This document shows, one piece after another, positions 32,044-63,426 of a stretch of 64,000 nt of DNA; the stretch's first letter is position 1; each line of letters starts with the position of its first letter. The DNA comes from Escherichia coli (GTDB lineage: Bacteria > Pseudomonadota > Gammaproteobacteria > Enterobacterales > Enterobacteriaceae). The translations under genes were made by a program, and so were the position numbers. The stretch lies in NCBI RefSeq assembly GCF_050320075.1, contig NZ_CP190018.1. The stretch is one strand, 5' to 3'. The notes under the pieces are model-generated. The model was not told where the DNA came from and did not search any database. It was given only the letters and a program-made list of their open reading frames with translations.

Positions 32044-32270
32044 ATCATCGTTGTTTTTGTTGCAATAGTAGAATACGCGTATTTATTCCTCCATCTCTAT
32101 TAATAACGGCAATAAACTGTTCACTTCACTGATATTTAAAATATGTATCCTTTTCAAGCTGTTCAGCGGCGTAAGAAAAAGTATTAATTATGAATTCGAT
32201 GATTTAACCATATCTGTCTGATTGGTAATCATCCGTGATTAATGCTGGTCTATTGATTACGCCAGAACCC
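32044..32270 (+). repeat. degenerate second copy of the ykgR 3' region joined directly to a ykgO 3' end-like segment
   Basis: 32044-32160 aligns by eye (roughly 80 percent) with 13155-13270, and 32170-32270 with 13951-14065 (encodes ...AVQRRKKKY* versus ykgO ...AVQGRKKKR*); the ykgM/ykgO body is absent between them. Confidence 0.7.
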
Positions 32271-33177
32271 TCTCTAGCTTATTCACCGCCGCCACATACT
32301 TCGCCGGATTTTTATCTTTAAGCACCGCCAGATTGCGTTGCTTCCAGCGAATAGCCGGAAGATGCTGAATTTCAGGATAGCGATACCGCGACCAGTCAGG
32401 GCTGTTTTGCTTAAAACTGAGCAAGAACTCGCGATCCAGATCCGTAAGATGTGACTTCAACGCCTGCGGCAGCAAAGTCGTTACTGACAGAAGCGATTCC
32501 AGCGACGTTTCCTGTTGCGTCATCCCTGAAAATTCCTGCGCGTACAACGTGGCGATCCGCTCTGTATCCCAGTTTGGAGCCAGCAACTCGGCGATGGGGC
32601 GGGGATGGCCTGCCAGATAACAAAGAAAACCGTCAAAGATCTCCCGCATCAGTCCCGGTTTCTCCAGCATATTCAGCACATCAAACAGATCGCGCGGGTG
32701 CTGACGATCAAGCGCAGCGCAGATTTTACCGCCATAAAGATCCGCCAGCGAGACGACACTCATGGTGGTGAAGCCATACTCCATTTCCACACGTTCGCAC
32801 ACAGGCATTTCTGCCGGAGGCAACAACAGCCCGCGCCAGACCGGGCTAACCTCGATCTTAATCTTTGCATCAGCGGTATTCACAATGATGCGCTTTTCAT
32901 CCGCTTTATTTTCCTGCCGAATCGCGGTGATCCCCGGTCTGCCGTTCAGCGATGCAGTAATCCTCTTCAAAGCGTCGTTGATAGCCGCCAAATCAGTATC
33001 GCGATCCGCAAAGCTCTTGTACGCCAGATCAATATCCACCGACAGACGGGGAAAATCCTGCACAAACAAATTGATTGCGGTGCCGCCTTTCAACGCGAAA
33101 CAGGACTCCTTCGCCACATACGGCAGAGCGGCCATCAACAGTTTGACCTGCCGGGCATAGCTATCACGCAGATCCAT
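32257..33177 (-). CDS. AbiEii/AbiGii-family nucleotidyltransferase toxin (type IV TA / abortive infection)
   Basis: 306 aa; NTase motifs (ALKGGTAINLF, DIDL); overlaps the upstream antitoxin gene by 14 nt. Confidence 0.85.
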   Translation of the reverse strand: MDLRDSYARQVKLLMAALPYVAKESCFALKGGTAINLFVQDFPRLSVDIDLAYKSFADRDTDLAAINDALKRITASLNGRPGITAIRQENKADEKRIIVNTADAKIKIEVSPVWRGLLLPPAEMPVCERVEMEYGFTTMSVVSLADLYGGKICAALDRQHPRDLFDVLNMLEKPGLMREIFDGFLCYLAGHPRPIAELLAPNWDTERIATLYAQEFSGMTQQETSLESLLSVTTLLPQALKSHLTDLDREFLLSFKQNSPDWSRYRYPEIQHLPAIRWKQRNLAVLKDKNPAKYVAAVNKLERVLA

Positions 33178-33967
33178 CTTCGACTCCTTCCGGTTTAAAT
33201 GCGCGTGGAACAGTAATTTGATAATCCGGCTCCAGCCAGCCGCCGGGTATGATTTGCCGCTTTCCCGTACCTGTTTCTATACCGCTTTGATCAATATACT
33301 GAAAATAAGGGTGTCCATTACGCCGGGCAAGGTAAAGCATCACCCGGTTGGTTTTAACCGAATGGCTGGCGCGAAGCAGTGCCTGCAATTTGCGTGGGCT
33401 GAGAAGATTCAACCCCTGAAACAGAGCATCGGCATGTTCGAACGAGATTAACGAAGGAACGCCGCAGGCGATCTCATACGCGGCCAGTTCCGGAACACTG
33501 CCTGCTAACTGGCGGTCGCCAATTTTCAGTTCCGTAGTAAATGGCGTTACATCAGCGGTAAGGCCTGACGTATACAGCGTGACAAACGTTGCGGATTGTT
33601 CAAAGGCAGAAAACCATCCCGGCAGTTTGACGTAAGCCGGAAGCGCGAGCCAGACCTGCGGCTTACCCTGTTCGGTATAGTGCGCATGACCCTGAAGCGC
33701 AAGGCTGGTTAGCCCCGCCACCCGAACAGGCTTTTCCCACTGCGATTGCAGGCAGTAAACCGCATCCACCCAATCCGGTTCACGACCCGTCCGGCAGTAT
33801 ACGCCGTGAGCGATCCGCCTGAGCCAGCCATTCTTCACATAGAGATAAGAGAGCTTACGATCTATGCCGTTGCGGGTAAGCCATGACTGGAGCAGCACCT
33901 GGCCGGGTAGCGTGTGCTGCATCAGCCAGTTTAGATAGTTTGGCAACTGTCGCCTCTGAATAGACAT
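33164..33967 (-). CDS. AbiEi-family antitoxin / transcriptional regulator
   Basis: 267 aa, N-terminal winged-helix-like region; immediately upstream of and overlapping AbiEii. Confidence 0.8.
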   Translation of the reverse strand: MSIQRRQLPNYLNWLMQHTLPGQVLLQSWLTRNGIDRKLSYLYVKNGWLRRIAHGVYCRTGREPDWVDAVYCLQSQWEKPVRVAGLTSLALQGHAHYTEQGKPQVWLALPAYVKLPGWFSAFEQSATFVTLYTSGLTADVTPFTTELKIGDRQLAGSVPELAAYEIACGVPSLISFEHADALFQGLNLLSPRKLQALLRASHSVKTNRVMLYLARRNGHPYFQYIDQSGIETGTGKRQIIPGGWLEPDYQITVPRAFKPEGVEDGSA

Positions 33968-34261
33968 TAGTACAAATATTTAAACCAGTGTAGATTCAGG
34001 GATACGCCACAGCAAGAAATAGTTTACTTATTCCTCATTTTGTCGACTAAAAATCGACATTAAACAAAAAATTCAAACTTAATCACTTTCGGGAAAAATG
34101 TGACAAATATATGCTCGGACTGGTTGCGGGGAGCGTGTAACATGGATACAAATCAAAATTATTGCCAGCCTCACTGATGGATTACTGGTGTCAAGAGCCC
34201 CCCTTCGGGCATGAAACGGCTGGCTAATTCTGTACAGACTGTAATCTAAGGACGATAACGC

Positions 34262-37200
34262 ATGACATATCAGGCAATTTTCACTGGCTGGGATGATCTG
34301 ACGATTGAAGACCTTCTGGTCGCTTACCGGAAAGCAAAAGCCGATAGCTTCTTTGAGAATACATTTCCTGTTGCTATCAAATTTGCCGAGTATGAGCAGG
34401 AATTACTTGAAAACCTGCAAAAACTCTTAGATCTTTTGCAGAGCGAAGATGGATTCAGTAGCAATAAGAAGTTGATTGGCAAATTTCGATTGTTACCGAA
34501 AAAATTAACCACAAAGAAAAAACATGAATCCCAAAATGGACACGTCCACTTTTCTAATCCTAAACGAGCAGCCGACCATTTATTTAATAATTTTGATCTG
34601 ATACCAGAGTTTCGTATTATTGGTGACTTCCCGGTTGATAGTCACATTATCTCTGCACTATGGATTAACATGGTCGGGCATAAATTTGATGCCAGCTTAG
34701 ATAACTGTTGCTATGGCGCGCGGCTAAAGCGTATTCGTAATGATGAATTATTTAGCAATGAGCAGGATAATCCATTCCATATCAGTGCCGTGGGTTCTTT
34801 TAGCCCCTACTTCCAGCCCTACCAAAAATGGCGTGGTGATGGCTTAAAAGCTATACGTGACGAGTTGGAAAAAGATCGTGACATTATCGCCGCCTCACTG
34901 GATTTAAAAAGTTACTATCATTTTATTGATCCACTGGCTATAACCTCTGATGATCTCTATAACACACTAAACATAAAACTGACTGAGGATGAAAAAGCGT
35001 TTACTGCACAGTTAGCAGTATTCTTAAAGCACTGGTCTGACGGCGCAGCGGCATTTGGAAAGAAAATAGCGTACAAAACACCTGTTATTAATGGTGGTCT
35101 GGTCATTGGATTAACAGCCAGTCGGATCATTTCAAATATATTGCTACACCATTGGGATAAATTAGTCATTGAAAAACTATCACCAATTCACTACGGTCGT
35201 TATGTCGATGATATGTTCCTTGTAATACGCGATACAGGGACAATTACTAATAATCACGAATTTATGTTATTGCTGCAAGATAGGCTTGGCAATGATTGCG
35301 TTTATTTGAAAAACGAGCAAAAACAAATATGGCAAATACAGCAGGGCGAGCATTTCCAGGGTAAGACCACCATCCAGTTACAATCCGATAAGCAAAAACT
35401 TTTCGTGCTTCAAGGGAGGGCTGGAATAGACCTGCTCGACAGTATCGAAAAGGAGATCTACGAGCTTTCTAGTGAACACCGCTTGATGCCTTCACCGGAT
35501 CAACTGGAACACTCCACCGCAGCTAAAGTCCTTTCCGCTGCCGGTAGTGTAGGTGAAAATGCCGATACTCTGCGCCGTGCGGATGGATTAACCATTCGTC
35601 GTTTGGGCTGGTCACTGCAATTACGCTACGTTGAAACACTGGCACGAGATCTGCCTCCAAGTGAATGGAAAGAACAGCGGGAAGAGTTTTATCAGTTTGC
35701 CTACAACCATATTCTTAGGGCTGATAATCTATTTGCACATTTTAGTTATCTGCCAAGGCTGCTTGGCTTTGCTATCAGTATGAATGAATGGCAGCACGCG
35801 GAAAAAATTGTACTTAAAGCTTACGAATCCATCAACCTGTTGGCATCGGTGATTACTTCAGGTAAGGAAGTGAATATAAATGGTTGCAAAACTCGAGCAG
35901 TAAATGATCTTTGGCGCTGTATAAAAGGCACATTAAGCTGGCTATTTGTTGATGCAGCGACACGATATTACAGTCCTGACAGATTATTTCTTGATAAACG
36001 TTCAAAGAAAGAAGAGTGCCTTGCGGATACATTTTTTAATCATATTTCACAAAGTCTGACGAATCTAAAGGATTTACTGGATCTTCGCTTTGATTCAGCA
36101 GATTTTTATTTAAAAGCGCCATTGGTAGCTCGAGCTGATTTAGCAAAGGAACCTTATAAACAGATCGTAAAGAGTCAGTCGGCAGAAAAACTTGTTAATC
36201 AGCGTGATAGTAAAAAAGAAGTTAAAATACTGAAATTAATGAGCGACTCATCGCTTATTGATATTGACGTTATTAAGCTATTTTTGAAATCAACCAAGAA
36301 TACCCGACTGGAAAAAGTGGCTAAAGGAAATCGTAAGAACGAAAGTTACCTACCTTACATTTTCCCTACACGTCCTTTAACACCCGCTGAAATATCAGAA
36401 CTGGCCCCCGAATGTGTTGGATTACCCTCCACATCCGACAAAAAACCAGATGAGAGACCGTCCACCATTTGGGCAAAATATACTCAAGCATTACGCGGAG
36501 TATGGATCAAACCGACGTTGCTAGCATCGGAGCAGGACTCAGATGAAGCGACAAAAAAAGCTCGGCCTAAGAAATTCATTCATATTGGCACAGACAGGAA
36601 ACATAAAGTTGTCGTTGCGCTAACCAGCATTAAAACAGAGGAGGACGACTGGGCTAAAATGGCCTGCAATAAATCTAACTTGTCCCGTTCAAGGTACCAG
36701 CGGATTTCTGAACTGGTTAATGCAACATTGAAACTATCTCCTAAACCTGATTATGTTTTATTCCCTGAGCTTTCAATCCCGTTACGCTGGGTTAACAGTA
36801 TTGCTGATCGTTTGAGTTCGGCGGGTATCAGTCTAATTGCGGGAACAGAATACCGCCACTTAGACGATAATCAACTGAAGAGTGAGGCCGTACTTGTCCT
36901 TTCAGATAACAGACTCGGCTATCCAGCGAGTGTCAAAATATGGCAACCCAAGCTGGAACCCGCCGTAGGTGAAGATGAGGCATTATTTTCAATTTATGGT
37001 AAGTCTTGGGATTCGACACTTAATGTTAAACAACGTAAGCCGGTATATATTCATCACGGCGTCAATTTTGGCGTTATGATTTGCTCTGAACTCCAGAATA
37101 GTAAAGCGAGGATCCGTTTTCAGGGCGCACTCGATGCATTAATGGTATTGAGCTGGAATAAAGATCTAGATACGTTTGCATCGTTGATTGAATCAGCAGC

Positions 37201-37471
37201 GCTGGATATTCATGCCTATACTATTTTAGTGAATAACCGAAAATACGGCGATAGTCGCGTACGTTCCCCGGCAAAAGAACCCTTTATGCGTGATATTGCT
37301 CGTGTGAAGGGCGGTGATAATGACTTTGTGGTCGCTGCAACGCTGGATATCGACTCGTTAAGGGCATTTCAGAGCAGGGCAAAACGCTGGCCTAAAGGCG
37401 GCGATAAATTCAAACCGTTACCTGAAGGATTCCAGTTGGCAAAGAACCGCAAAAAGCTACCGCCAAAATAA
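34262..37471 (+). CDS. reverse transcriptase fused to a C-terminal nitrilase (carbon-nitrogen hydrolase) domain; DRT type 1 / UG1-like defence RT
   Basis: 1069 aa. RT motif A ASLDLKSYYHFID, motif B GGLVIGLTASRIISNILL, motif C YGRYVDDMFLV (YxDD). C-terminal domain has nitrilase catalytic-triad contexts FPELSIP (Glu) and GVMICSE (Cys). AT-rich relative to flanks. Confidence 0.85.
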   Translation: MTYQAIFTGWDDLTIEDLLVAYRKAKADSFFENTFPVAIKFAEYEQELLENLQKLLDLLQSEDGFSSNKKLIGKFRLLPKKLTTKKKHESQNGHVHFSNPKRAADHLFNNFDLIPEFRIIGDFPVDSHIISALWINMVGHKFDASLDNCCYGARLKRIRNDELFSNEQDNPFHISAVGSFSPYFQPYQKWRGDGLKAIRDELEKDRDIIAASLDLKSYYHFIDPLAITSDDLYNTLNIKLTEDEKAFTAQLAVFLKHWSDGAAAFGKKIAYKTPVINGGLVIGLTASRIISNILLHHWDKLVIEKLSPIHYGRYVDDMFLVIRDTGTITNNHEFMLLLQDRLGNDCVYLKNEQKQIWQIQQGEHFQGKTTIQLQSDKQKLFVLQGRAGIDLLDSIEKEIYELSSEHRLMPSPDQLEHSTAAKVLSAAGSVGENADTLRRADGLTIRRLGWSLQLRYVETLARDLPPSEWKEQREEFYQFAYNHILRADNLFAHFSYLPRLLGFAISMNEWQHAEKIVLKAYESINLLASVITSGKEVNINGCKTRAVNDLWRCIKGTLSWLFVDAATRYYSPDRLFLDKRSKKEECLADTFFNHISQSLTNLKDLLDLRFDSADFYLKAPLVARADLAKEPYKQIVKSQSAEKLVNQRDSKKEVKILKLMSDSSLIDIDVIKLFLKSTKNTRLEKVAKGNRKNESYLPYIFPTRPLTPAEISELAPECVGLPSTSDKKPDERPSTIWAKYTQALRGVWIKPTLLASEQDSDEATKKARPKKFIHIGTDRKHKVVVALTSIKTEEDDWAKMACNKSNLSRSRYQRISELVNATLKLSPKPDYVLFPELSIPLRWVNSIADRLSSAGISLIAGTEYRHLDDNQLKSEAVLVLSDNRLGYPASVKIWQPKLEPAVGEDEALFSIYGKSWDSTLNVKQRKPVYIHHGVNFGVMICSELQNSKARIRFQGALDALMVLSWNKDLDTFASLIESAALDIHAYTILVNNRKYGDSRVRSPAKEPFMRDIARVKGGDNDFVVAATLDIDSLRAFQSRAKRWPKGGDKFKPLPEGFQLAKNRKKLPPK

Positions 37472-37817
37472 GAAACTGATTTTCGCTATTAATAATCAGG
37501 GTATTTTTGCGTGAGATGTTGGTAAACATGATGTAGCCCTTGCCACTCATGACCAATCGCAGTATCTTTCTCCCGCGCCTGCAAAATCAGGCGTCGGGAT
37601 TAGCCTCCTGAAGAAATCTTATCGGCGACACATGACGCGCCAGCGTCTTTTTTTGTGTTGTTCGCACGGTTACATCTCAATGGTGGGCCGGGCGGGGGCG
37701 TCGCAAGACGCGCCAGTGTCCGATAAGGCTGGTAAGGCTAACCCTGCCCGGTTCCACCACCCGCGAGATTAGCCTCTCCGGTGGTGGCTTGAACACCCAC
37801 TTATCGGAGGTTGCCCT

Positions 37818-38288
37818 ATGGCTACAATCCTCACCACTGACAGCGATTTACTCGATCTATTGACCGTCCCCTTCAATGCCACCACGGATTTCACTGTCCT
37901 TGCTGACTACTGCGCCCGCTTTGCCGAAACCCTGATTGAAACCGACGATCCAGCGCTACGACTGGCGCTCTGCGGGCGGCTTCACGCGGCTCTTGCGCTA
38001 CTGCAACCCACACTACACGACCCCATCCCACCGCATCTTACCGAAAGCCTGACCGTGGATACCCTTCCCGCCACACCAGAGCACTTTATTTCCGAACCTG
38101 ATTCCTTGTGCGAATACTGCCTCGCACTACTCCAGCTTCTGCTGGAACGTCCGGCGGAACCAAAAATGGAGCAAACCCTGACCGGGCTGCTGTGTGAGCT
38201 GGTCTGGTATTTCACGGAAGGACTCAAAGCCCCACGCTGGCTGCGTACCGCCGACGGCGTAAAATTTATCAGCGAGGTGGCCGCATGA
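37818..38288 (+). CDS. hypothetical protein (156 aa, acidic, Leu/Ala-rich), GC-rich
   Basis: ORF with good coding statistics; its stop overlaps the ATG of the downstream Ner-like fragment (ATGATG), suggesting an operon. Confidence 0.5.
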
Positions 38289-38410
38289 TGCAACAGGACT
38301 GGCATTCCGCCGACATTATTGCGGTGCTGAAAAAGCGGGGAACGCCTCTGGCGGCACAGAGAAAAACTCATTGCGGAAGCGCTGTAAATATCGCCAGAAA
38401 TCATCTGGCC
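38285..38410 (+). pseudogene. Ner/Nlp-like HTH regulator gene, frameshifted
   Basis: [25 protein letters not shown]... resembles the Ner/Nlp N-terminus (DWHxADIIAxLxKxG); continuation (REKLIAEAL) is in another frame. Confidence 0.5.
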
Positions 38411-38637
38411 TTCAAGGTACTTTGATAGCAAAGGCAAGCAGGCTGGTTCAGTCCAGTGTTTCTCTTCTTGCATTTTCAGAAATGGGAGGCTGGGAGTCTA
38501 TCGAAATGGTTCGTCGATATGCTCACCTCGCGCCTAATCACCTTACCGAACACGCACGGCAAATAGACTCAGTCCTGAACCCATCGGTCCCAAATTTGTC
38601 CCAGTCAAAAAATAAGGAAGGTACTAATGATGTGTAA
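38410..38637 (+). pseudogene. 3' fragment of a tyrosine-recombinase (phage integrase) gene
   Basis: Encodes ...[35 protein letters not shown]..., the C-terminal catalytic-Tyr region of phage integrases, with no N-terminal domains. Confidence 0.7.
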
Positions 38638-38789
38638 CTTATTGATTTTAATGGTGCGATAAGAGGAATGAATATTGCAAGTTAACGCATTGATTTATAA
38701 TAGATTATTATATTCAAAAAATATAACTATACACATATCTATACACACTGCGCGCATCGCTTGTTTTTCGCACAATTAAAAATAAGAAA

Positions 38790-39080
38790 AAAGTTTTTTT
38801 TCGAAAGAACTGTTCACACTGTTCACCTTTCTGTTTTCTCCTTTTATTTCAGTTTGATAGGTGGTGAATAATGGGTGAATGGTGAACATTCGATTCTTCA
38901 CCTCCGGCATTCTGCCGGTGTGACTCATACCGGTGATTAATCCCCCGTACTGAAATCACACAGGGAGAAAAAAAGTTTTTTTTGATTTGATTGTTCACAC
39001 TGTTCACCTTTCATTTTTCTCTTTTAATTTCAGTGTGATAACGGGTGAATATACGGTGAAGGGTGAACAGTGGATTGTTC
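38790..39080. repeat. P4-type crr (cis replication region): two ~100-bp direct repeats, each with TGTTCACC / GGTGAACA iterons
   Basis: Units at about 38790-38890 and 38973-39075 are near-identical and each contains TGTTCACACTGTTCACC plus inverted GGTGAAYA copies. Confidence 0.8.
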
Positions 39081-39098
39081 ACCTTCGGGGAATTCAGG

Positions 39099-39126
39099 GA
39101 TAAAAAAAGACCGGCAGATGCCGGTC
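39099..39126 (-). terminator. rho-independent terminator downstream of alpha
   Basis: Hairpin GACCGGCA / TGCCGGTC with an adjacent T-run on the minus strand. Confidence 0.55.
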
Positions 39127-39142
39127 AGATGAGTCATGATGG

Positions 39143-41476
39143 TCAGGTTGTTGCAGGGTCGTCACATTTTGGCAGCCAGTCGCCGTAGCTTTCCTCTTTC
39201 AGCGTCAGGTTGGTCTGTATCCCCTGTTTGGTATGGCGCTTCTCGTAATTCAGTCCGTATTCCTTCAGCATCACCGGCAGCCCCAGCCCGAACATTTTCA
39301 GACTGAGTACATTCCGGTAGCCGTTTGCCTCCATGTAGGCCAGATAGGCGTGATAGAGGTATTTACGGTAATTACGCGGGATGATACTGGCGTTCCCCAT
39401 ATACATGCCGCTGGTCTGCGGCAGGGTTTCCAGATAGCCGATAAAATCAAACGTCGGGTCGGCATCCCGTTTGATGTTCAGCGCCTCGTCTGAGTTCTGC
39501 TGGGACTGAAGCAGTGACCGGGCGAGCATCGGGTCGCTGAACTTCTGCATCAGGTGACGCACGATGACCGCCAGCTCGCGGGTGATTTTGTCCTTAAGCT
39601 GCGGGTCGCGCTCCTGCGGGGCTATCTGTTCCGGGAAGTGAATAATCACCCGCCGGCGTGACACGCCGCCGCTGCGGTCGGTGAAGCGCATCGGGTTATT
39701 GTTCACGGCCAGAATTACCGCCGGGATATGCGTGGAGTATGCATCCCGGTATTTCGGGTCAACGGACACCGCATCGCCGCCGGTGATGGCCTTGAGTCCG
39801 GCACCGTCGCCGCTCCATTTTTCCTGGTCCGGCAGGCGTATCAGTGAGAAGCCAGTTAACGCGGCACGTTCACGCGGGGATTCCAGCGTCTCGATGGTGG
39901 CCGACGTGGCGTTATCCTCCCCGGCCAGCAGGGTGGCTATTTCGGCCATGATACTTTTGCCGCTGCCGCCGGGACCGGTCACCTCCAGAAAGAGCTGCCA
40001 GTCGTAGCGGTTTGCCAGCACCATAAACAGTGCGGCCAGAATCACGTCGCGTTTTTCCGCACGGCCACCGGCGGCACGGTCAAGCCAGCGCCAGAACGCG
40101 GGGGCGTGGGTCTCCAGCGTTTCACCGTCCACCGGCGGGGTGAAATCCACATCGCACAGGGTGCGCATCCAGTGTGACGGACTGTGCGGGTGGAACGTGC
40201 CGTTCTGCGTGTCGAGCACGCCGTTACGAAAGCCAATCAGGCGGCGGGAGGGGGCTTCCTGCTGCGGAATAATCAGCTTCAGGGTGTCCACCACGGAGGC
40301 CACCTTCCCGGAGGAGAACGGCGCGCGCAGACGCTGAAACAGCCCGGCCACATCCCGGGCAAAGTCCTGTGGTGGCAGCACCTTCCAGACACCATTTTCA
40401 TAACGGGACAGAAGCTGGCCGTTGGCATCGACCGCGAGCGCCTCGCCGTAATGCTCATAGATACGCATGGCCTTTTCGCTGGTACTCATGGCGGAAAACT
40501 CCGCTTCGCTCATGGTGTCGAACGGGCTTTCAGCCGGTGGCCGGATGGCATCATAAATGGCCTTACGGGTGGCTTCCCCGCCGTACTGCGTGAAGGCATC
40601 ATTCCAGTCACCGAAGACCGGCGGCAGGGCAACAACGCCCTCACACGCATCTGCGGCTGCGGCGGCTTTTTTCTGGCCGTCACCGCTGAGGTCACGGTCT
40701 GCGGCAAGGACAATCTGACAGGCCGGATGCTTCTGCCGGGCAAGGCTGGCCAGAGAAAGGAGGTTCACGGAAGAAAGCGCCACCATCACCGTTTCACCGG
40801 TCAGGTGATGTACGGTAAGTGCGGTCGCGTATCCCTCCGCTATCCACAGACGTTTTCCGGCCTGATTCTGTCCTTCAAGGGTGTGACAGGTGCCCCTGAC
40901 CTGTCCGCCTTTCAGGGTGCGCTTACGGCCGTCAGCACTGATTAACTGAAGGTTAACCAGTTCGCCGCTGTCGTCATACAGTGGCACCACAAGGTCACCG
41001 GCACGCCAGCTCACGCCACCGGCTCTGTGTGTGCCGGTCAGCATCCGGCATTCCCGGCCGGGAAAGCCCTTGCGGGTCAGGTAGGCGTTACCGGTTCCGG
41101 GACGGGTTTTCGCCATCAGGGTTTGTGCCAGTGCGGCGGCGTTCTTCCGGGCAGCGTCTGTTTCAGCACCGGCGGCAGCCGTCACTGCCGGGTCAGCCGG
41201 GGGCAGGCTGCCGGTCACGGCAGCCACCTTTGCTGCCGCGTCGGACGGGGAAACACCAAACACCTTTTCAACCAGTTTCAGGCCGTCACCGGCACCACAC
41301 TGATTGCAGTACCAGGTGCCGCGCCCCTCCCTGTCATCAAAACGGAAGCGGTCACTCCCGCCACAGACCGGACAGGGCTGATGACGGTTTTTCAGCACCT
41401 GAATCCCCAGCGCCGGGAGAATACGCGGCCAGTGGCCGAGCGCATGGCTGACGGTGGCGGTTACGTTCATTTTCAT
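39143..41476 (-). CDS. alpha: P4 alpha-type primase-helicase
   Basis: 777 aa; N-terminal zinc-binding primase motif (CPVCGGSDRFRFDD...WYCNQCGAGDG), central and C-terminal helicase region; iterons on both sides. Confidence 0.9.
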   Translation of the reverse strand: MKMNVTATVSHALGHWPRILPALGIQVLKNRHQPCPVCGGSDRFRFDDREGRGTWYCNQCGAGDGLKLVEKVFGVSPSDAAAKVAAVTGSLPPADPAVTAAAGAETDAARKNAAALAQTLMAKTRPGTGNAYLTRKGFPGRECRMLTGTHRAGGVSWRAGDLVVPLYDDSGELVNLQLISADGRKRTLKGGQVRGTCHTLEGQNQAGKRLWIAEGYATALTVHHLTGETVMVALSSVNLLSLASLARQKHPACQIVLAADRDLSGDGQKKAAAAADACEGVVALPPVFGDWNDAFTQYGGEATRKAIYDAIRPPAESPFDTMSEAEFSAMSTSEKAMRIYEHYGEALAVDANGQLLSRYENGVWKVLPPQDFARDVAGLFQRLRAPFSSGKVASVVDTLKLIIPQQEAPSRRLIGFRNGVLDTQNGTFHPHSPSHWMRTLCDVDFTPPVDGETLETHAPAFWRWLDRAAGGRAEKRDVILAALFMVLANRYDWQLFLEVTGPGGSGKSIMAEIATLLAGEDNATSATIETLESPRERAALTGFSLIRLPDQEKWSGDGAGLKAITGGDAVSVDPKYRDAYSTHIPAVILAVNNNPMRFTDRSGGVSRRRVIIHFPEQIAPQERDPQLKDKITRELAVIVRHLMQKFSDPMLARSLLQSQQNSDEALNIKRDADPTFDFIGYLETLPQTSGMYMGNASIIPRNYRKYLYHAYLAYMEANGYRNVLSLKMFGLGLPVMLKEYGLNYEKRHTKQGIQTNLTLKEESYGDWLPKCDDPATT

Positions 41477-41490
41477 GGTGTTGTTCTCCT

Positions 41491-41811
41491 TCAGTGCAGT
41501 ACCGGCGCTTTTATGTGACGGGCACAGAGTTCATCCATCACAACCAGCCCGAGAAAGGACAGCGACGGCGCGGCCTTCAGGGGGCCGGATTCCATTAAAT
41601 CTTCCAGCAGGGCACAGGCTATCTGACGCCCTTTTTCCTCACCGTGCTGGCGCAGATAAAAGCCTTCCAGCTCAGCGGCGATGGCCGCCTCCAGTGATTC
41701 AAGGGTGAGATGCGGGTAGCGGTGCTGACGTTCGCACACGGTCAGCCAGGCACAGGCGACAGCGCGACGGTAAAGGGCTGCGCGTAAGACGGGCGGTAAG
41801 GGTGTTTTCAT
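41491..41811 (-). CDS. P4-family conserved hypothetical protein (106 aa)
   Basis: ORF directly upstream of alpha in the left operon. Confidence 0.55.
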
Positions 41812-41946
41812 TTGTTTTCCTCCCTGTGACAGATGACTGCATTCCGTGCCGGTTGCATTAACTGATAAGGCATATCTGCGTCTCCTGAAGACGTGCGTAT
41901 CCCTGCGCGAATACGCACATTTAATTTTTCGGGTGTCGTTTTTTAA

Positions 41947-42402
41947 TTACAGATAATTGCGGTAACTGTTATCCGGGGTGATTTCCGGGTCAGGCTCCGT
42001 GCGGGGAATTTCCCGCCATTCCCGCGCCACCGGTGCCGCCCGGCTGGCCGGAACAGTGTCCTGCGGGTAAATATCCAGATATTTCTCCCGCCATTTCTGT
42101 AATTCCGGGTCTCCGGCCATTTCTTTCAGTACCGCATGCCGGTTTACGGGGCTGCGTTTAAACAGGTCAGGACGGTCACAGGTAAATTCCCGCAGAAAAC
42201 GCCCCAGCGGGATGTCTGTGGTGCGCCCGTCAGCGAGGATACGCACAAGGATACTGAATTTACGGCGGTACGGGTTCCAGACAATGTCCGGGCAGCGGTA
42301 CGGCATTTCCCACGGAATACCGTCTTCCAGAATGCCGACCACGGCCACATCGGGAAAACCGGCAGAACGGTAAATCTCACCGGGCTGGGGAAAATCAAAC
42401 AT
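41947..42402 (-). CDS. P4-family conserved hypothetical protein (151 aa; P4 orf151-like position)
   Basis: ORF in the alpha operon; size and position as in P4. Confidence 0.55.
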   Translation of the reverse strand: MFDFPQPGEIYRSAGFPDVAVVGILEDGIPWEMPYRCPDIVWNPYRRKFSILVRILADGRTTDIPLGRFLREFTCDRPDLFKRSPVNRHAVLKEMAGDPELQKWREKYLDIYPQDTVPASRAAPVAREWREIPRTEPDPEITPDNSYRNYL

Positions 42403-42682
42403 GCGTCCTGTCTCCCCGGTCTTTCTGCTGGGCGAGAAAATCGCGGCACAGGCCTTTGGCTTTCAGTTCATTCAGCACAAAATCAATATCTTCATTCAGG
42501 TAGCTGAAAATATGCGGAATGTAGAGCTGATGCAGGCCGGAGAGTTCACGGTGAATCAAATCACCCCCAACAAACCGGGATACGGCGCTGGCGCGGTTGA
42601 GCTTATGGTAAGCCTCAATGCTGAGGTGTTCACGGGCGTCATGACGCGCTGAGACGGTCTGAGGGGCTTTTTTATTACGCAC
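42395..42682 (-). CDS. P4-family small protein with probable GTG start (95 aa; epsilon-like position)
   Basis: GGAGG RBS 6 nt upstream of GTG at 42682; ORF ends overlapping the orf151-like start; the 177-aa ORF in the track is probably an over-extension. Confidence 0.4.
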
Positions 42683-42875
42683 GGGACACCTCCACCACCG
42701 GCAGACGGGCAGCAAGGGAGAGCACATAGTCACGGACAAGGGAACGGCGGGCGCTGCGTTCATCACCGGCGACGGTGCGAAGCATACAGATACGGGGATG
42801 ACGATCTGCGCGACGGACAGCCGCAAACACAAAGACAAATTCAGGGTGTGAGGTGGTAAGGGTTGTAGCCATGAT
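42675..42875 (-). CDS. P4-family small hypothetical protein (66 aa, [26 protein letters not shown]...)
   Basis: Short ORF immediately downstream of the immunity-RNA region; stop overlaps the next start. Confidence 0.4.
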
Positions 42876-42883
42876 GGCAGCCT

Positions 42884-43136
42884 CCTTGAAGTAACAGTTA
42901 CAGCTACCACTGGAGTTCCTACGCTCATGGGTGGTAGCCCGGACGGGGGTAGGAATACCGGCCTTCAAGGAAACCGGCCAGCCCGAAGGCTGCCCCGCCC
43001 GGACCACCATTATCTGACAGAGGCTACGGTTTAAAAACCACAGCCAGAAAAACAGGTGTGCCGAAGCAACGACGTAAAAAAAGACGCATGGCGCGTCATA
43101 TGTCGCCTTGAAGTAACTCGGGTTCCTACGCCCGGC
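42884..43136 (-). ncRNA. P4-type RNA immunity region (CI-RNA-like seqB flanked by complementary seqA / seqC-like repeats)
   Basis: Direct repeats CCTTGAAGTAAC...GTTCCTACGC at 42884-42924 and 43106-43136, and between them (42949-42971) GGTAGGAATACCGGCCTTCAAGG, complementary to both; in the untranslated leader of the left operon. Confidence 0.5.
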
Positions 43137-43225
43137 TGCCGATTTTGCGGCAGCGGAAAAACTATATCCGCAAATGCCGGAAAAAGGCAAGCCAGAAAAA
43201 GGGACTTTTTGCAGAACAGGCATCA

Positions 43226-43492
43226 TCATGCGTCATACCCCCGTTGGCGTCCGGCAATGCGGCCGGCCATCCATGCGGTGACTTCAGAGTGCAGCCAGGC
43301 CACATTTTTACCGCCAAGACTCACCTGCGGCGGAAATTCCCCCTTACGGATGAGTTCATAGATGGTCGAGCGTGACAGGCCGCACAGGTGCATCACTTCC
43401 GGCAGACGTAAAAAACGCTCCTGCGTGATGTCCGGCAGCGGCATCAGTGGCGTCACAGGGGCGGGAGACGGGGAAGAAAAAACAGCTTGCAT
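43226..43492 (-). CDS. alpA: AlpA-family phage regulatory protein (small MerR-like HTH)
   Basis: [50 protein letters not shown] is the AlpA signature; true start may be the internal Met (43444). Confidence 0.85.
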
Positions 43493-43769
43493 CGGGCTAC
43501 CTCGTTAATGTCCATACAGCACCGGATAAGTCCGTCCGGCTTCTGGTAGCGCTTTATTTTGTGAATATTTTCAGCAGACGCAACAGGGGGAATTTGTTCC
43601 GGCAACCTTACAATGGCTGTGTGTTTTTTATCCATCTGGACTGGAAGGGTCTCAAAGGGTTCTGAAGGACCTGGAATTTTTTATAGTGAAATACAAATTG
43701 TTTTTTCTTATTTATTTCAGTGAATTAATAAAAATAAACAGTGATAAACAGCATAAAAAGCCCATCAAC

Positions 43770-43880
43770 GGGTGAACAGTGGTGAACAGACGGTGAACAG
43801 TCATTACTGCGATTGTTCACCCTTTAACTTACTGTATTACTTATCTTTTTTCTTATGGTGAACAGAGGTGAACAGTAAAA
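43770..43880. repeat. P4-type origin of replication: six GGTGAACA / TGTTCACC iterons
   Basis: GGTGAACAGTGGTGAACAGACGGTGAACAG (43771-43800), TGTTCACC (43815-43822), GGTGAACAGAGGTGAACAG (43858-43876), within AT-rich DNA between alpA and sid. Confidence 0.8.
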
Positions 43881-44043
43881 TATAAAAAAACAAACAGTAA
43901 GCCGGTTTTTCCTGCGACCTTTTCCTGGCTTGCCGGTCTGAGGATGAGTCTCCTGTGTCAGGGCTGGCACATCTGCAATGCGTCGTGTTGCTGTCCGGTG
44001 TACGTCACAATTTTCTTAACCTGAAGTGACGAGGAGCCGGAAA

Positions 44044-44778
44044 ATGTCTGACCACACTATCCCTGAATATCTGCAACCCGCACTGGCACAACTGGAAAAG
44101 GCCAGAGCCGCCCATCTTGAGAACGCCCGCCTGATGGATGAGACCGTCACGGCCATTGAACGGGCAGAGCAGGAAAAAAATGCGCTGGCGCAGGCCGACG
44201 GAAACGACGCTGACGACTGGCGCACGGCCTTTCGTGCAGCCGGTGGTGTCCTGAGCGACGAGCTGAAACAGCGCCACATTGAGCGCGTGGCACGCCGGGA
44301 GCTGGTACAGGAATATGACAATCTGGCCGTGGTGCTGAATTTCGAACGTGAACGCCTGAAAGGGGCGTGTGACAGCACGGCCACCGCCTACCGGAAGGCA
44401 CATCATCACCTTCTGAGTCTGTATGCAGAGCATGAGCTGGAACACGCCCTGAATGAAACCTGTGAGGCGCTTGTCCGGGCAATGCATCTGAGCATTCTGG
44501 TACAGGAAAATCCGCTCGCCAACACCACCGGCCATCAGGGCTACGTCGCACCCGATAAGGCTGTCATGCAGCAGGTGAAATCATCGCTGGAACAGAAAAT
44601 TAAACAGATGCAAATCAGCCTCAGCGGCGAGCCGGTTCTCCGGCTGACCGGACTGTCAGCGGCAACACTTCCGCACATGGATTATGAGGTGGCAGGCACA
44701 CCGGCACAGCGCAAGGTGTGGCAGGACAAAATAGACCAGCAGGGAGCAGAGCTTAAGGCCAGAGGACTGCTGTCATGA
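44044..44778 (+). CDS. sid: P4 Sid-type capsid size determination (external scaffold) protein
   Basis: 244 aa from the internal Met (MSDHTIPEYLQPALAQLEKARAAH...), coiled-coil rich; followed by delta and psu. Confidence 0.85.
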   Translation: MSDHTIPEYLQPALAQLEKARAAHLENARLMDETVTAIERAEQEKNALAQADGNDADDWRTAFRAAGGVLSDELKQRHIERVARRELVQEYDNLAVVLNFERERLKGACDSTATAYRKAHHHLLSLYAEHELEHALNETCEALVRAMHLSILVQENPLANTTGHQGYVAPDKAVMQQVKSSLEQKIKQMQISLSGEPVLRLTGLSAATLPHMDYEVAGTPAQRKVWQDKIDQQGAELKARGLLS

Positions 44779-45275
44779 TTTACTGCCCGTCGTGTGGACA
44801 TGTTGCTCACACCCGTCGCGCACATTTCATGGACGATGGCACCAAGATAATGATTGCACAGTGCCGGAATATTTATTGCTCTGCGACATTTGAAGCGAGT
44901 GAAAGCTTTTTCTCTGACAGTAAAGATTCAGGAATGGAATACATTTCAGGCAAACAGAGATACCGCGATTCACTGACGTCAGCCTCCGGCAGTATGAAAC
45001 GCCCGAAAAGAATGCTTGTTACCGGATATTGTTGTCGGAGATGTAAAGGCCTTGCACTGTCAAGAACATCGCGGCGTCTGTCTCAGGAAGTCACCGAGCG
45101 TTTTTATGTGTGCACGGATCGGGGCTGTGGTCTGGTGTTTAAAACGCTTCAGACCATCAACCGTTTCATTGTCCGCCCGGTCACGCCGGACGAACTGGCA
45201 GAACGCCTGCATGAAAAACAGGAACTGCCGCCAGTACGGTTAAAAACACAATCATATTCGCTGCGTCTGGAATGA
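44775..45275 (+). CDS. delta: P4 Delta-type late transcription activator (tandem Ogr-like zinc fingers)
   Basis: 166 aa; two CxxC...CxxC zinc-finger units (MIYCPSCGH...CRNIYC and YCCRRCKG...CTDRGC). Confidence 0.9.
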   Translation: MIYCPSCGHVAHTRRAHFMDDGTKIMIAQCRNIYCSATFEASESFFSDSKDSGMEYISGKQRYRDSLTSASGSMKRPKRMLVTGYCCRRCKGLALSRTSRRLSQEVTERFYVCTDRGCGLVFKTLQTINRFIVRPVTPDELAERLHEKQELPPVRLKTQSYSLRLE

Positions 45276-45348
45276 GGGCTGCCGGTTAACACCGGCCGTC
45301 GCCGCACACCGTATTTTTATTCTTCAGCATGATGAGAAAGAGATAACG

Positions 45349-45921
45349 ATGGAAAGCACAGCCTTACAGCAGGCCTTTGACACCTGTCAGAATAACAAAG
45401 CAGCATGGCTGCAACGCAAAAATGAGCTGGCAGCGGCCGAACAGGAATATCTGCGGCTTCTGTCAGGAGAAGGTAGAAACGTCAGTCGCCTGGACGAATT
45501 ACGCAATATTATCGAAGTCAGAAAATGGCAGGTGAATCAGGCTGCCGGTCGTTATATTCGTTCGCATGAAGCCGTTCAGCACATCAGCATCCGCGACCGG
45601 CTGAATGATTTTATGCAGCAGCACGGCACAGCACTGGCGGCCGCACTGGCACCGGAGCTGATGGGCTACAGTGAGCTGACGGCCATTGCCCGAAACTGTG
45701 CCATACAGCGTGCCACAGATGCCCTGCGTGAAGCCCTTCTGTCCTGGCTTGCGAAGGGGGAAAAAATTAATTATTCCGCACAGGATAGCGACATTTTAAC
45801 GACTATCGGATTCAGGCCTGACGCGGCTTCTGTGGATGACAGCCGTGAAAAATTCACCCCTGCGCAGAACATGATTTTTTCGCGTAAAAGTGCGCAACTG
45901 GCATCACGTCAGTCTGTGTAA
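45349..45921 (+). CDS. psu: P4 Psu-type polarity suppression / capsid decoration protein
   Basis: 190 aa; last gene of the sid-delta-psu operon, followed by cos. Confidence 0.85.
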   Translation: MESTALQQAFDTCQNNKAAWLQRKNELAAAEQEYLRLLSGEGRNVSRLDELRNIIEVRKWQVNQAAGRYIRSHEAVQHISIRDRLNDFMQQHGTALAAALAPELMGYSELTAIARNCAIQRATDALREALLSWLAKGEKINYSAQDSDILTTIGFRPDAASVDDSREKFTPAQNMIFSRKSAQLASRQSV

Positions 45922-46085
45922 AATTCCCCGAAAATCCGCCTGTTTTTACTGAAAAAAGCCATGCATCGATAAGGTGCATGGCTTTGCATGCGTTTTCCTG
46001 CCTCATTTTCTGCAAACCGCACCATTCCCGGCGCGGTCTGAGCGTGTCAGTGCAACTGCATTAAAACCGCCCCGCAAAGCGGGCG

Positions 46086-46104
46086 GGCGAGGCGGGGAAA
46101 GCAC
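46086..46104 (+). other. cos cohesive-end sequence of P2/P4 type
   Basis: GGCGAGGCGGGGAAAGCAC matches the 19-nt P2/P4 cohesive end as I recall it; position just downstream of psu fits P4. Confidence 0.65.
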
Positions 46105-46122
46105 TGCGCGCAACAATGATGA

Positions 46123-47517
46123 TTATGATTTCATTTTATCTGCAATATCTTCTAAGGAATCAAAGAATGCTTTGACAAAGTTGTCTTTATTAACAGTAGT
46201 AAAGTTTTGATTGTAAAATCCTACACATGCAGAAAAAATTGCTCTGCAAGTTAGCTCATTATATTTAGATGAATATAATGGTTCGACTCCACGATACACG
46301 GACCAAGAACCATGAGCTATATCAGACCTAGTCTTATACATTTCCTGAGCCACTCTAGCCCATTTTTTTTCATCTTGATAATAAATAGAAACTAATGAAG
46401 AAACACGACTTACGAAGTTCTTTGTTGTAGATGAATCCTTTTTTTCGCTACTTAGACTAACCAGCCGTTCAAGAGCCGTTGTTAATTTTACTATACGAGA
46501 ACTTTCATCCTTATCCTGTTGTGCGCTACTAAATAAATAGATAGCATCAATTAGCCTGTCTGCAATTACAGAGTTTTCATGAGGTTCTATCGCCAACTCT
46601 ATTAACCGAGAAAGAACTAACCCTAAGTCAGATTTGTAATCATCTTCAAACTTATTCCAAAACTCACCGCTATTGGCTATAGTCCCTTTAGTTGAGTAAT
46701 GATAGTTAAACATTTCGTTTGGTTTCTTGGAAAGATAAAAGCCGTCATAATTTGGGTAAGGATCTGTTGATATACTTAAAAAGTATGGGGAGATATTATA
46801 GTGCACACCAAATAGCTGTAGTATCCCAACCACAAAACATGCAATATTTTTAGCGATTCTCTGCCTACTTAACTTAGAGCGTTTGCTAACAGGGATTTTT
46901 AGGTAGTGTTTATAATGAAATTTATGAGAAGAACAAAATTTCTTAGCTAAATCAAGTTGTTGCTCAGTAAAATCATCACTAATAGTTAAGTGCATTTTTT
47001 CTGCCGATATAATATCAACTCGGCCAATAGACATTATATCTCGTTCCAACCCGTGAGCTAAAATAGGATAATAAAAATCCTCTTCAGACATTTCTCTCCT
47101 TGTTAGTTTTAATGTTTTATTTAGGAGGATAGTACATCCACTCCTGTCGCAACTGCCGTTCTCAACCCAAATATGCATAAACAATATTTTCTTAAGATTA
47201 CTTAAAAATTCATCGGTAGTAACTAGCATTTCTAAGCGATTTGATTTTATAAATCTAGCCGAAATAGCATATAACTTCTCATAAGAGGCATATGATAGAT
47301 GAATTTGAGTTCTAGAAAGATCTGTTCTTCCTTTTATTAGTTCATATGGTGCATCTATGGTCATTCCCAATGAACCAAAATTACCATTATATTCTTTTTT
47401 GTAAAATTCCATAAAATTAGATGAGGATGTTAACTCTTTATTTATTCTAACAGCCTCATCAAGAATAAATTTAAAATCTTTAACGTCTTCCAAACTGGCA
47501 CTCATCATTTTCACCAT
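46123..47517 (-). CDS. uncharacterised 464-aa protein in the P4 psu-int hotspot; C-terminal HEPN-like Rx4H motif; candidate anti-phage effector
   Basis: Strongly AT-rich versus the GC-rich flanking P4 genes; sits between cos/psu and int; C-terminal region contains RSDIAHG (R-x4-H-G, as in HEPN RNases); no Walker or other obvious motif; start overlaps the int 3' end. Confidence 0.7.
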   Translation of the reverse strand: MVKMMSASLEDVKDFKFILDEAVRINKELTSSSNFMEFYKKEYNGNFGSLGMTIDAPYELIKGRTDLSRTQIHLSYASYEKLYAISARFIKSNRLEMLVTTDEFLSNLKKILFMHIWVENGSCDRSGCTILLNKTLKLTRREMSEEDFYYPILAHGLERDIMSIGRVDIISAEKMHLTISDDFTEQQLDLAKKFCSSHKFHYKHYLKIPVSKRSKLSRQRIAKNIACFVVGILQLFGVHYNISPYFLSISTDPYPNYDGFYLSKKPNEMFNYHYSTKGTIANSGEFWNKFEDDYKSDLGLVLSRLIELAIEPHENSVIADRLIDAIYLFSSAQQDKDESSRIVKLTTALERLVSLSSEKKDSSTTKNFVSRVSSLVSIYYQDEKKWARVAQEMYKTRSDIAHGSWSVYRGVEPLYSSKYNELTCRAIFSACVGFYNQNFTTVNKDNFVKAFFDSLEDIADKMKS

Positions 47518-48685
47518 TTAAATTAATAATAAAATCACTATACCACTGCATCATTTTCTTTCGATCTTCTATATACTGTGCATGATTATATACACCACGT
47601 ATCGTGTTTTTATCCACATGAGCCAACTGCATTTCAATCCAAGCAGTATTAAAACCATTTTCATGGAGTATTGTTGATAATGTATGCCTAAATCCATGTC
47701 CTGTAAGTTTTCCCGCATAGCCTATGCGTTTGATAAGTTGATTAACACTTGCCTCACTCATAGGTTTGTTTGGATCATTCCGTCCCGGGAAAACATAACG
47801 ATAATTTCCTGTCATAGATTTAAGTTCATTAAGAAAGCCTAATACCTGGGTCGATAAGGGGACTAGGTGCGGCCTACGCATTTTCATTTTTTCGGCAGGA
47901 ATTTCCCAAATAGCGTTGTCCAGATCAAACTCTTGCCATAATGCCGCTCGCAACTCGATAGTTCTAACCCCAGTAACCATCAATAATTTTGTGGCAATCT
48001 GAACAAGTCGGCTTCCTGCATAACTATCTAAAGCACGCAGAAAATCAGGTATCTCATCTGATTTTAAGAAAGGAAAATGATTTGATTTGTGTACTTCGAG
48101 GGCACTGGACAGATCTGCCGCAGGATTAAACTCTGCTCTTCCGGTAGCAATAGCATATCGAAAAACCTCTGAGCAACGTTGCCGCACTTTGCGCATTTTC
48201 TCCAATGCACCACGTTTCTCAATTTTACGCAGCACATTTAGCAATTCTAGCGGTTTAATTTCCCCTACAGGCCTCGTCCCTACATACGGAAAAATATCAT
48301 TTTGGAACGCCTCAATAATATCTGAGGCATACCCAGCAGACCATTTTGCCGACTTCATCTGATGCCACTCTCTGGCAATCTTTTCGAATGCGTTCTCAGA
48401 TTGAATTCGTAATGCTAATTTTTGTTCTTTTCGAACCTCACTAGGATTTTTTCCCTCGGCCACTATTTTTCTGGCCTCATCACGGCGGGCGCGAGCTTCA
48501 GCAAGTGTGATCGTTGGATAAACACCAAGCGAGATCATTTTAGGTTTACCTGCATAGCGATAACGAAATCGCCAGCTTTTACTTCCATTTGGCTCTACAA
48601 GTAAAGACAACCCTTGCCCATCCCCAAGTGTATAGGCTTTAGCTTCAGGTTTAGCACGGCGAATCTGCATATCATTTAGGGGCAT
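47480..48685 (-). CDS. int: P4-type tyrosine integrase
   Basis: 401 aa; N-terminal arm-binding region (MPLNDMQIRRAKPEAKAYTLGDGQGL), C-terminal catalytic region (HGFRHT...YNHAQY); start faces the tRNA fragment 165 bp away. Confidence 0.95.
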   Translation of the reverse strand: MPLNDMQIRRAKPEAKAYTLGDGQGLSLLVEPNGSKSWRFRYRYAGKPKMISLGVYPTITLAEARARRDEARKIVAEGKNPSEVRKEQKLALRIQSENAFEKIAREWHQMKSAKWSAGYASDIIEAFQNDIFPYVGTRPVGEIKPLELLNVLRKIEKRGALEKMRKVRQRCSEVFRYAIATGRAEFNPAADLSSALEVHKSNHFPFLKSDEIPDFLRALDSYAGSRLVQIATKLLMVTGVRTIELRAALWQEFDLDNAIWEIPAEKMKMRRPHLVPLSTQVLGFLNELKSMTGNYRYVFPGRNDPNKPMSEASVNQLIKRIGYAGKLTGHGFRHTLSTILHENGFNTAWIEMQLAHVDKNTIRGVYNHAQYIEDRKKMMQWYSDFIINLNGENDECQFGRR

Positions 48686-48849
48686 GTGTATAGAATTCCA
48701 AAATCGAACAGGAACATATACATAATCCTATACACATTTAGTACTGGATTCTACTGGAAGGTTATGGACTAACACGGACAACGATAACAAAAAATCTTTT
48801 ATAAAACAGTATGCTTATGGACAAATACGGACGTTTGAAGAAGTTGGGA

Positions 48850-48896
48850 TGGTGCCGATAATAGGAGTCGAACCTACGACCTTCGCATTACGAATC
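48850..48896 (-). tRNA. 3' fragment (~47 nt) of a thrW-type tRNA-Thr(CGU); attachment-site core, not a complete tRNA
   Basis: Minus strand reads GATTCGTAATGCGAAGGTCGTAGGTTCGACTCCTATTATCGGCACCA (anticodon loop with CGU through T-arm to CCA); the sequence 5' of it cannot form acceptor and D stems. Confidence 0.8.
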
Positions 48897-50926: not shown

Positions 50927-51009
50927 TTCTTTCCCAGATATGGAGTGAACATCTGCGAAAATGTAGCACATTTCAAGGTAAACAAGAAGCGCATCCATGC
51001 GCATTTTCA

Positions 51010-52929: not shown

Positions 52930-53017
52930 TTCATTGCTCCAGACGAATGATATGATGCAACCATGATGTGATTGCATACCGAAATGGTACTATTGAGTAT
53001 TTATCCAGTAGGTTACG

Positions 53018-53311
53018 ATGCCATTCCACCCAACTGGTGAGGCATCAAGGATGTACAGCAAATACGACGAGGCGCAGTTTCACTTGAGACTTCCGCATGA
53101 ACTCCACGCGAAAATTAAGCAGCGTGCGAAGATGAATAACAGGTCGCTGAACTCAGAGATAATTGCAGCGATTGAGGAATCATTGGATAAACAAAGCTCT
53201 GCATCAGTTTACATTGACGATGCAGAGCGTATGGCAGAACAACAATCTGATATGGTTAAGAAAATTGTCTTTGATACGCTCAAGAAGCTATATAAAAAAG
53301 ACAGCAGATAA
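53018..53311 (+). CDS. Mnt/Arc-like ribbon-helix-helix repressor
   Basis: Resembles P22 Mnt (…RSLNSEIIAAIEESL…DAERMAEQQSDMVKKIVFDTLKKLYKK); located between gene-16-like and tailspike as in the P22 immI region; start may be the internal Met (53051). Confidence 0.75.
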   Translation: MPFHPTGEASRMYSKYDEAQFHLRLPHELHAKIKQRAKMNNRSLNSEIIAAIEESLDKQSSASVYIDDAERMAEQQSDMVKKIVFDTLKKLYKKDSR

Positions 53312-53400
53312 CCATCCGTTACGGAGGATTTATGCACAGAGATATGCTGAATATTGCGTTCTACATATTTGGTTTTTGCACGTTCCTGGTGTTTGCGAAG

Positions 53401-57126: not shown

Positions 57127-57135
57127 GATTACCCC

Positions 57136-57828: not shown

Positions 57829-57830
57829 GG

Positions 57831-60552: not shown

Positions 60553-60560
60553 TTATTCAC

Positions 60561-62517: not shown

Positions 62518-62528
62518 TTATCTTTTCC

Positions 62529-63413: not shown

Positions 63414-63426
63414 TGATTACTCCTGG

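Follow-up and report, generated by a model that had tools for sequence, protein, structure and literature searches.

What is the function of an octamer that is crowded into two short places of a bacterial chromosome, ca. 4.7 kb apart? This is the question raised by TGTTCACC/GGTGAACA in the 64 kb window of Escherichia coli DNA (the whole stretch that was analysed) considered here. In our view the two clusters are ori1 and crr, the cis-acting halves of the bipartite origin of a P4-like satellite of ca. 10.2 kb, located at an att site derived from thrW in the E. coli chromosome, and we put the probability of this reading at ca. 0.96. The two-part origin itself is already known, being a textbook feature of P4, and the replication module described below is, as far as can be read from its sequence, intact and ordinary.

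We searched both strands of the 64 kb for exact copies of the octamer and found 12, against 1.88 expected, a count that was not reached by any of 100 shuffles. Eleven of these copies were concentrated in two short clusters, at 38820-39083 (five copies) and 43771-43874 (six copies), while the chance expectation for the 368 bp of both clusters is ca. 0.01. The twelfth, at 5225, lies inside the fdeC adhesin gene and agrees with chance. Allowing one mismatch added five octamers to the crr cluster (38811, 38863, 38895, 38992, 39044), which gives the 5 + 5 pattern annotated in P4, and a repeat search at this place recovered two copies of a direct repeat of 123 nt that are 80% identical (38785-38907 and 38966-39088, 181 bp start to start). 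The elements of the two clusters are as follows.

38788..39088, no strand: crr (cis replication region), delimited by the repeat search and by alignment to P4 crr 4291-4590
38788-38907 and 38969-39088: the two 120-bp direct repeats of crr, with a 61-bp spacer between them
38811, 38820, 38863, 38881, 38895: the five type 1 iterons of crr repeat 1
38992, 39001, 39044, 39062, 39076: the five type 1 iterons of crr repeat 2
43771..43874: the iteron block of ori (ori1), with six exact type 1 iterons, at 43771, 43781 and 43792 (-), 43814 (+), 43857 and 43867 (-)

The starts of the ori iterons follow each other at 10, 11, 22, 43 and 10 bp, and an AT-rich spacer of 35 bp (43822-43856, 20% GC) separates the fourth from the fifth. 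The block is situated between the divergent promoters P_LL and P_sid, 2.3 kb upstream of the start of alpha and beyond cnr, orf151, epsilon, icd/kil, the CI RNA and vis. At the other side, crr begins 55 bp past the alpha stop codon, with a terminator between them, and 4.69 kb separate the clusters (39083 to 43771). A preliminary description of the window had already placed the octamers at these two locations, with the right coordinates (11 of the 12 exact copies are there), ca. 4.7 kb apart and with six copies at 43770-43880, all of which agrees with the present figures, including exactly six copies in the second cluster. It had also reported two direct repeat units of ca. 100 bp; the direct repeat is real, but its unit measures 120 bp. 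Its statement that the clusters flank alpha holds only loosely, with six genes or features lying between alpha and ori.

The identity of the two clusters was revealed by comparison with phage P4 (X51522), to which window positions 38787-46085 are 97.6% identical (P4 4291-11624). At the homologous positions the P4 records annotate crr as a 'cis required region for replication' with two 120-bp repeats that have five 'ori type 1 repeats' each, followed by a putative alpha terminator, alpha, ORF106 (cnr), ORF151, epsilon, cI, ORF88 (vis), sid, delta and psu; six type 1 repeats are likewise annotated, at the homologous position, as part of an 'origin of DNA replication'. When the alignment was examined base by base, all 16 annotated type 1 iterons were the same as in P4 and no indel altered their spacing. 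Within crr there are 11 differences (substitutions or indels) in 301 columns with respect to P4 4291-4590, and the ten iterons are identical. The ori block, whose iterons are at P4 9310-9413, has two substitutions in 141 bp and no indels. The proposal that the arrangement matches that of P4 ori and crr is therefore borne out by this 97.6% identity and the 16 identical iterons.

The trans-acting parts of the module are equally close to those of P4.

39102..39126 (-): t-alpha, the rho-independent terminator of alpha, identical to the P4 terminator at 4604-4628
39143..41476 (-): alpha, the replication initiator, 777 aa (primase, SF3 helicase and C-terminal winged-helix origin-binding domain)
41491..41811 (-): cnr (ORF106), copy-number regulator of P4 replication, identical to P4 ORF106 in 106 of 106 residues

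The terminator was also detected independently by a terminator scan (39126-39109). Alpha shares 771 of 776 residues with P4 alpha, its coding DNA, of the same length as in P4, is free of indels (99% protein identity), and it matches the Pfam domains Zn_Ribbon_Prim, Toprim_3, D5_N, DUF5906 and Pox_D5, while residues 671-770 correspond to PDB 1KA8, the solved origin-binding domain of P4 alpha (E=1e-63). Directly upstream of it is cnr. With alpha full length and 99% identical, Cnr 100% identical, the terminator identical and the iterons unchanged, the replication module appears intact, as had been surmised from the sequence alone.

How such a module would work can be taken largely from P4. There, crr is reportedly needed in cis and both sites are said to be bound by alpha, and looping between ori and crr belongs to the picture of P4 replication. 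The minimal ori1 is said to comprise 123 bp, with the six iterons and the 35-bp AT-rich region, and to be disturbed by insertions of 6 or 10 bp; an alternative origin, ori2, reportedly consists of a 36-bp site inside alpha. Cnr is said to be a negative regulator of initiation. Alpha combines a DnaG-type primase, an SF3 helicase and a winged helix (PMC2777425), and it binds the P4 origin repeats through the winged-helix domain before unwinding and priming (PMC4234260). By analogy, TGTTCACC would be the type 1 iteron, to which the alpha of this satellite would bind with its C-terminal winged-helix domain; the SF3 helicase of alpha would open the adjacent AT-rich DNA at ori, and its N-terminal DnaG-type primase would prime synthesis. 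The crr cluster, 4.7 kb off and just past the alpha terminator, would serve alpha as a second group of binding iterons, needed in cis, and Cnr would restrain initiation. We expect the module to be at work once the satellite is derepressed or when it is kept as a plasmid. Binding, unwinding, priming and the ori-crr interaction we infer from published P4 work; the identity of every component to P4 was established here directly.

Among 5426 complete E. coli genomes, P4-type ori was detected in 1050 and crr in 1154, in all cases on the chromosome. Compared with the P4 replicon (X51522, X05623), our satellite has the same octamer, the same 6 + 10 iterons in the same orientation and spacing, the 120-bp crr repeats, the terminator and the gene order, and none of the 11 changes in crr and two in the ori block lies within an annotated iteron. 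It differs in its att/int module (thrW-type, with an integrase only 38% identical to P4 Int), for which reason homology to P4 starts precisely where crr does on its left side, and it has other alleles of the immunity region and of the cox-box ('type 2 repeat') patch. The P4-like family is defined by seven core components, int, psu, delta, sid, alpA/vis, epsilon and alpha (de Sousa & Rocha 2022, PMC8628076). All seven are present in canonical order, together with cnr, in an element of ca. 10 kb with variable cargo between psu/cos and int; nothing that defines the family sets it apart, and its cargo is a single unclassified protein annotated as HEPN.

Outside P4 proper, a functional parallel is provided by the iteron-type origins of plasmids such as pSC101, R6K, P1 and F, which also have clustered short direct and inverted repeats for initiator binding, with nearly helical spacing and an adjoining AT-rich unwinding element. 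However, the P4 initiator is itself a primase-helicase, hence no separate helicase loader or primase, and the P4 origin consists of two parts, the second iteron set being 4.7 kb distant, and belongs to no plasmid Rep family. Two other satellites show how much of this design is retained. One is a diverged P4-like element of strain QDFD216 (alpha 84% identical), in which the DNA around ori has diverged beyond recognition while the ori iterons, their orientation and the 10/11/22/43/10 spacing have been kept; its crr (L005 1860-1980) is a single unit that still has the iterons, against the two 120-bp repeats described above, and no repeats like type 2 or cox-boxes were found upstream of its ori. 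The other is an unrelated, capsid-encoding satellite of E. coli CREC-629. Its ca. 10 TGTTCACC iterons (L006 5860-6110) directly follow the gene of a primase of 605 aa, which shares 48% identity with alpha residues 290-771 in its helicase and C-terminal DNA-binding domains. Unlike the P4 type, this satellite has another N-terminal domain in its primase, one cluster of iterons, with no crr observed apart from it, and its own genes for major capsid, head decoration and small terminase, but no sid, delta or psu. The same octamers beside an alpha-like domain in CREC-629, together with the 38% identical Int of our satellite, indicate that the octamer travels with the alpha-type DNA-binding domain and not with the integrase or the capsid-hijacking genes.

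The remainder of the satellite and its junctions are given below.

About 38651-48895: the satellite, ca. 10.2 kb
38651..38667 (-): distal att, a degenerate copy, 17 nt long, of the 3' end of thrW (one indel, one mismatch; local alignment)
41947-42402 (-): orf151, 2 amino-acid differences from P4
42395-42682 (-): epsilon, 0 amino-acid differences from P4
42927..43014 (-): CI immunity RNA (Rfam C4), gathering-threshold match, in a region diverged from P4
43077-43154: isrK, Rfam gathering-threshold match
43115-43167: c4-a1b1, Rfam gathering-threshold match
43226..43492 (-): vis/alpA (ORF88), 88 aa, differing from P4 only by V30L and K83Q
44044-44778 (+): sid, late operon, 2 amino-acid differences from P4, no indels
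44775-45275 (+): delta, late operon, 3 amino-acid differences from P4, no indels
45349-45921 (+): psu, late operon, 1 amino-acid difference from P4, no indels
46086..46104: cos cohesive end GGCGAGGCGGGGAAAGCAC, 19 nt, from alignment to the right and left ends of P4
46123..47517 (-): cargo gene in the psu-int hotspot, annotated in RefSeq as HEPN domain-containing protein
47480..48685 (-): tyrosine integrase of P4-type architecture (Pfam Arm-DNA-bind_3, Phage_int_M, Phage_integrase)
48850..48895 (-): int-proximal att, identical to the last 46 nt (3' end) of tRNA-Thr (thrW)

The cos site is of the P2 type; its 19-nt cohesive end and the flanks are identical to P4, and homology ends ca. 14 bp beyond. 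The 38% identity of the integrase to P4 Int was obtained by BLASTP. The changes in delta are C72G, G73S and P116R, so a cysteine has been lost in this zinc-finger activator, which might matter. Between psu and int, P4-like satellites have a hotspot for defence genes (PMC9122126), with which the location of the cargo gene coincides. Its product had no match in Pfam, PADLOC or NCBIfam, and we regard the gene as a candidate for an uncharacterised anti-phage gene.

The block that is common to other genomes has its left edges at 38634-38658; an exact-repeat search at both junctions found no att repeat, and ARAGORN detected no tRNA in the 64 kb window. E. coli strain YZLc1-3, 99.9% identical to the window, provides the wider setting: a complete thrW, next to proA, sits beyond the adjacent P22-like prophage, and the order proA, thrW, P22-like prophage, partial thrW, satellite, older remnant amounts to a tandem pile-up at thrW. 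The P22-like prophage lies to the right of the satellite (49886-64000, -) and runs past the end of the window; its genes include an O-antigen acyltransferase, a tailspike with P22 head-binding domain, ejection proteins, gp10/gp4 and coat, and its integrase abuts the complete thrW beside proA in the matching genome. To the left there is a decayed older island (32257-38637), with a 3' integrase fragment (38434-38637, ca. 96% identical to the int of SfI/SfII/SfV), an HTH fragment, an ash-family ORF and a second pair of C4 and isrK RNAs (37575-37764, +), all of which look like the remnant of another P4-like element. Beside this remnant are a reverse transcriptase-nitrilase of 1069 aa (DRT, RT_UG5-nitrilase, E=0, 34262-37471) and an AbiEi/AbiEii pair (32257-33967). 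Farther away (24458-27205), paoB and paoC are fused into one ORF of 915 aa, both being flagged as partial in RefSeq, which points to an internal deletion in the aldehyde oxidoreductase operon. Outside the window, at ca. 1330368 of NZ_CP123240.1, the host genome has at least one further P4-like satellite, with a P4-type cox-box allele, and six places in NZ_CP123240.1 match crr, so that several satellites with the same iterons coexist in one cell.

Could the clusters be something other than a replication origin? A short motif that recurs in two clusters gives the superficial impression of a CRISPR-like array, a memory locus of repeats and spacers, and recurrence is the only likeness, as the repeats of ca. 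23-50 nt at regular intervals that characterise such arrays are not found here. The motif is only 8 bp, occurs in both orientations and is irregularly spaced (9-97 bp), the 120-bp units represent one duplicated sequence instead of a repeat with unique spacers, and every base is explained by P4 homology. Furthermore, no cas genes are annotated across the 64 kb in the 99.9% identical RefSeq genome, and no CRISPR family passed the Rfam gathering threshold between 37000 and 50000. We consider the probability of a CRISPR locus to be practically nil, in line with the preliminary description, which had set the octamers apart from CRISPR and had named regular spacing, unique spacers and an adjacent cas gene as signs to the contrary; all of these are missing. 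It is also very improbable, if less extremely so, that the octamers serve another satellite protein, either as arm sites of the integrase or as sites for the transcription factors Vis or delta. The position of crr, ca. 120 bp from att, and that of ori, near the late promoters P_LL and P_sid, would suit such a role, but the octamers are identical to those of P4 in spite of the 38% identical Int and the different att, the annotated Int arm sites of P4 are of the unrelated ATGCCCCC type, and an octamer cluster accompanies an alpha-like primase/helicase in a satellite devoid of sid, delta and psu. Besides, the repeats have been assigned to the winged-helix domain of alpha (PMC4234260).

An alternative that deserves more weight, even if we think it unlikely, accepts the clusters as an origin and supposes that the satellite is a relic, intact in sequence but inactive, i.e., a fixed cryptic prophage whose iterons are now functionless in this strain. 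The degenerate distal att (17 nt, with an indel and a mismatch) speaks for it, and so does the position of the satellite in a tandem pile-up at thrW, next to an older P4-like remnant that has decayed; indeed, excision of this satellite copy could be impaired by the state of the distal att. However, the seven P4 core genes, cnr, cos and the terminator are intact, with no frameshifts and at most three amino-acid changes (five in alpha), and the iterons are more strongly conserved than their flanks. Moreover, at least 12 other complete genomes have the block of 10.2 kb, 98-99% identical and in different contexts, which indicates recent mobility. We favour instead a complete P4-like satellite that is probably replication-competent, with ori1 and crr as the two halves of its origin.

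Within DNA that is 97-99% identical, two patches are sharply unlike P4, the immunity region (42887-43160) and the type 2 repeats. In the former, which contains the CI/C4 RNA, isrK and the seqA/seqC-like repeats, the window has TTGAAGTAAC...GTTCCTACGC and P4 has CTGTGAAT.GC...GTTCTCACGC, so that the CI RNA and its target repeats change together. This suggests a different immunity specificity. The second patch corresponds to what is annotated in P4 as 'ori type 2 repeats' (P4 9176-9205; window 43638-43667), in P4 three units of 10 bp, TTAAAGTCA / TTAAAGCCA / TTAAAGCAA.

43634..43680 (P4 9172-9215): position of the type 2 repeats, occupied by a diverged allele of ca. four phased 10-bp units, GGACTGGAAG GGTCTCAAAG GGTTCTGAAG GACCTGGAAT

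Cox-boxes, with the consensus TTAAA(G/C)NC(A/C), are the sites upstream of P_LL at which the Cox protein of the helper phage P2 binds P4 DNA to derepress the prophage (PMC3936717). The type 2 repeats of P4 fit this consensus, which makes them helper-sensing sites and not replication elements. With at most one mismatch there are three cox-boxes in the P4 allele and none in the window allele. The window allele aligned instead to the attP of WPhi, with a score of 33 that none of 2000 shuffles reached and including the exact 12-mer GGACTGGAAGGG; the matching WPhi segment lies between the core and the P' arm, which is the positional equivalent of the annotated Cox site of P2. Matches of the window allele to WPhi Pe-Pc (145 of 2000 shuffles) and, in the same type of test, to the P2 sites were not significant. 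Conversely, the P4 allele matched P2 Pe-Pc (1 of 2000 shuffles) and the P2 attP Cox site (38 of 2000), and its comparison with WPhi was not significant in the shuffle test. The Cox protein of WPhi reportedly neither binds cox-boxes nor activates P4 (PMC5009727). The alleles fall into two discrete types: of the 5426 complete E. coli genomes, 279 have the window type and 447 (megablast) to 686 (blastn) the P4 type, and strain YZLc1-3 has both of them, on different satellites.

A tentative interpretation, to which we give somewhat less than even odds, is that this satellite has exchanged its Cox site for an allele similar to the Cox/attP site of WPhi, a heteroimmune helper, i.e., that there may be satellite alleles tuned to different helpers. 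Co-residence of alleles and helper switches, considered for the best 60 genomes per list and confounded by clonality, gave overlaps of the window-type allele with the WPhi switch in three genomes and with the P2 switch in three, and of the P4-type allele with the WPhi switch in 19 (18 of them from one heavily sampled O145 clone) and with the P2 switch in none. A BLAST search of phage genomes with the 51 nt of the window allele returned spurious matches only, and in the literature searched no paper combined 'cox-box' with 'P4-like'. Two other accounts of the patch were considered. That the type 2 repeats are integrase arm sites was rejected, given that the arm sites annotated in P4 are of the ATGCCCCC type, and that their divergence tracks an altered Vis is unsupported, given that Vis differs only by V30L and K83Q. 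The motif CTRGAAGGG was not enriched window-wide (18 against 19 expected), and its look-alike beside int (48754) has therefore been treated as possibly due to chance.

The value of identifying the iterons is mainly one for annotation, as it avoids calling them CRISPR or leaving them as unexplained repeats; with P4-type ori/crr in about one fifth of complete E. coli genomes, such recognition is routine but useful. One initiator-iteron pair is used by two satellite families, which makes cross-activation or incompatibility between them possible. Of the items described here, only the Cox-site allele might call for a specialist's attention. If the swap is functional, there would be at least two helper-tuned alleles of P4-like satellites, deciding which P2-like phage wakes the satellite, with replication iterons that are unchanged between alleles. 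If it is the allele that sets the derepressing helper phage, the Cox site would become a simple sequence marker of the specificity between satellite and helper.
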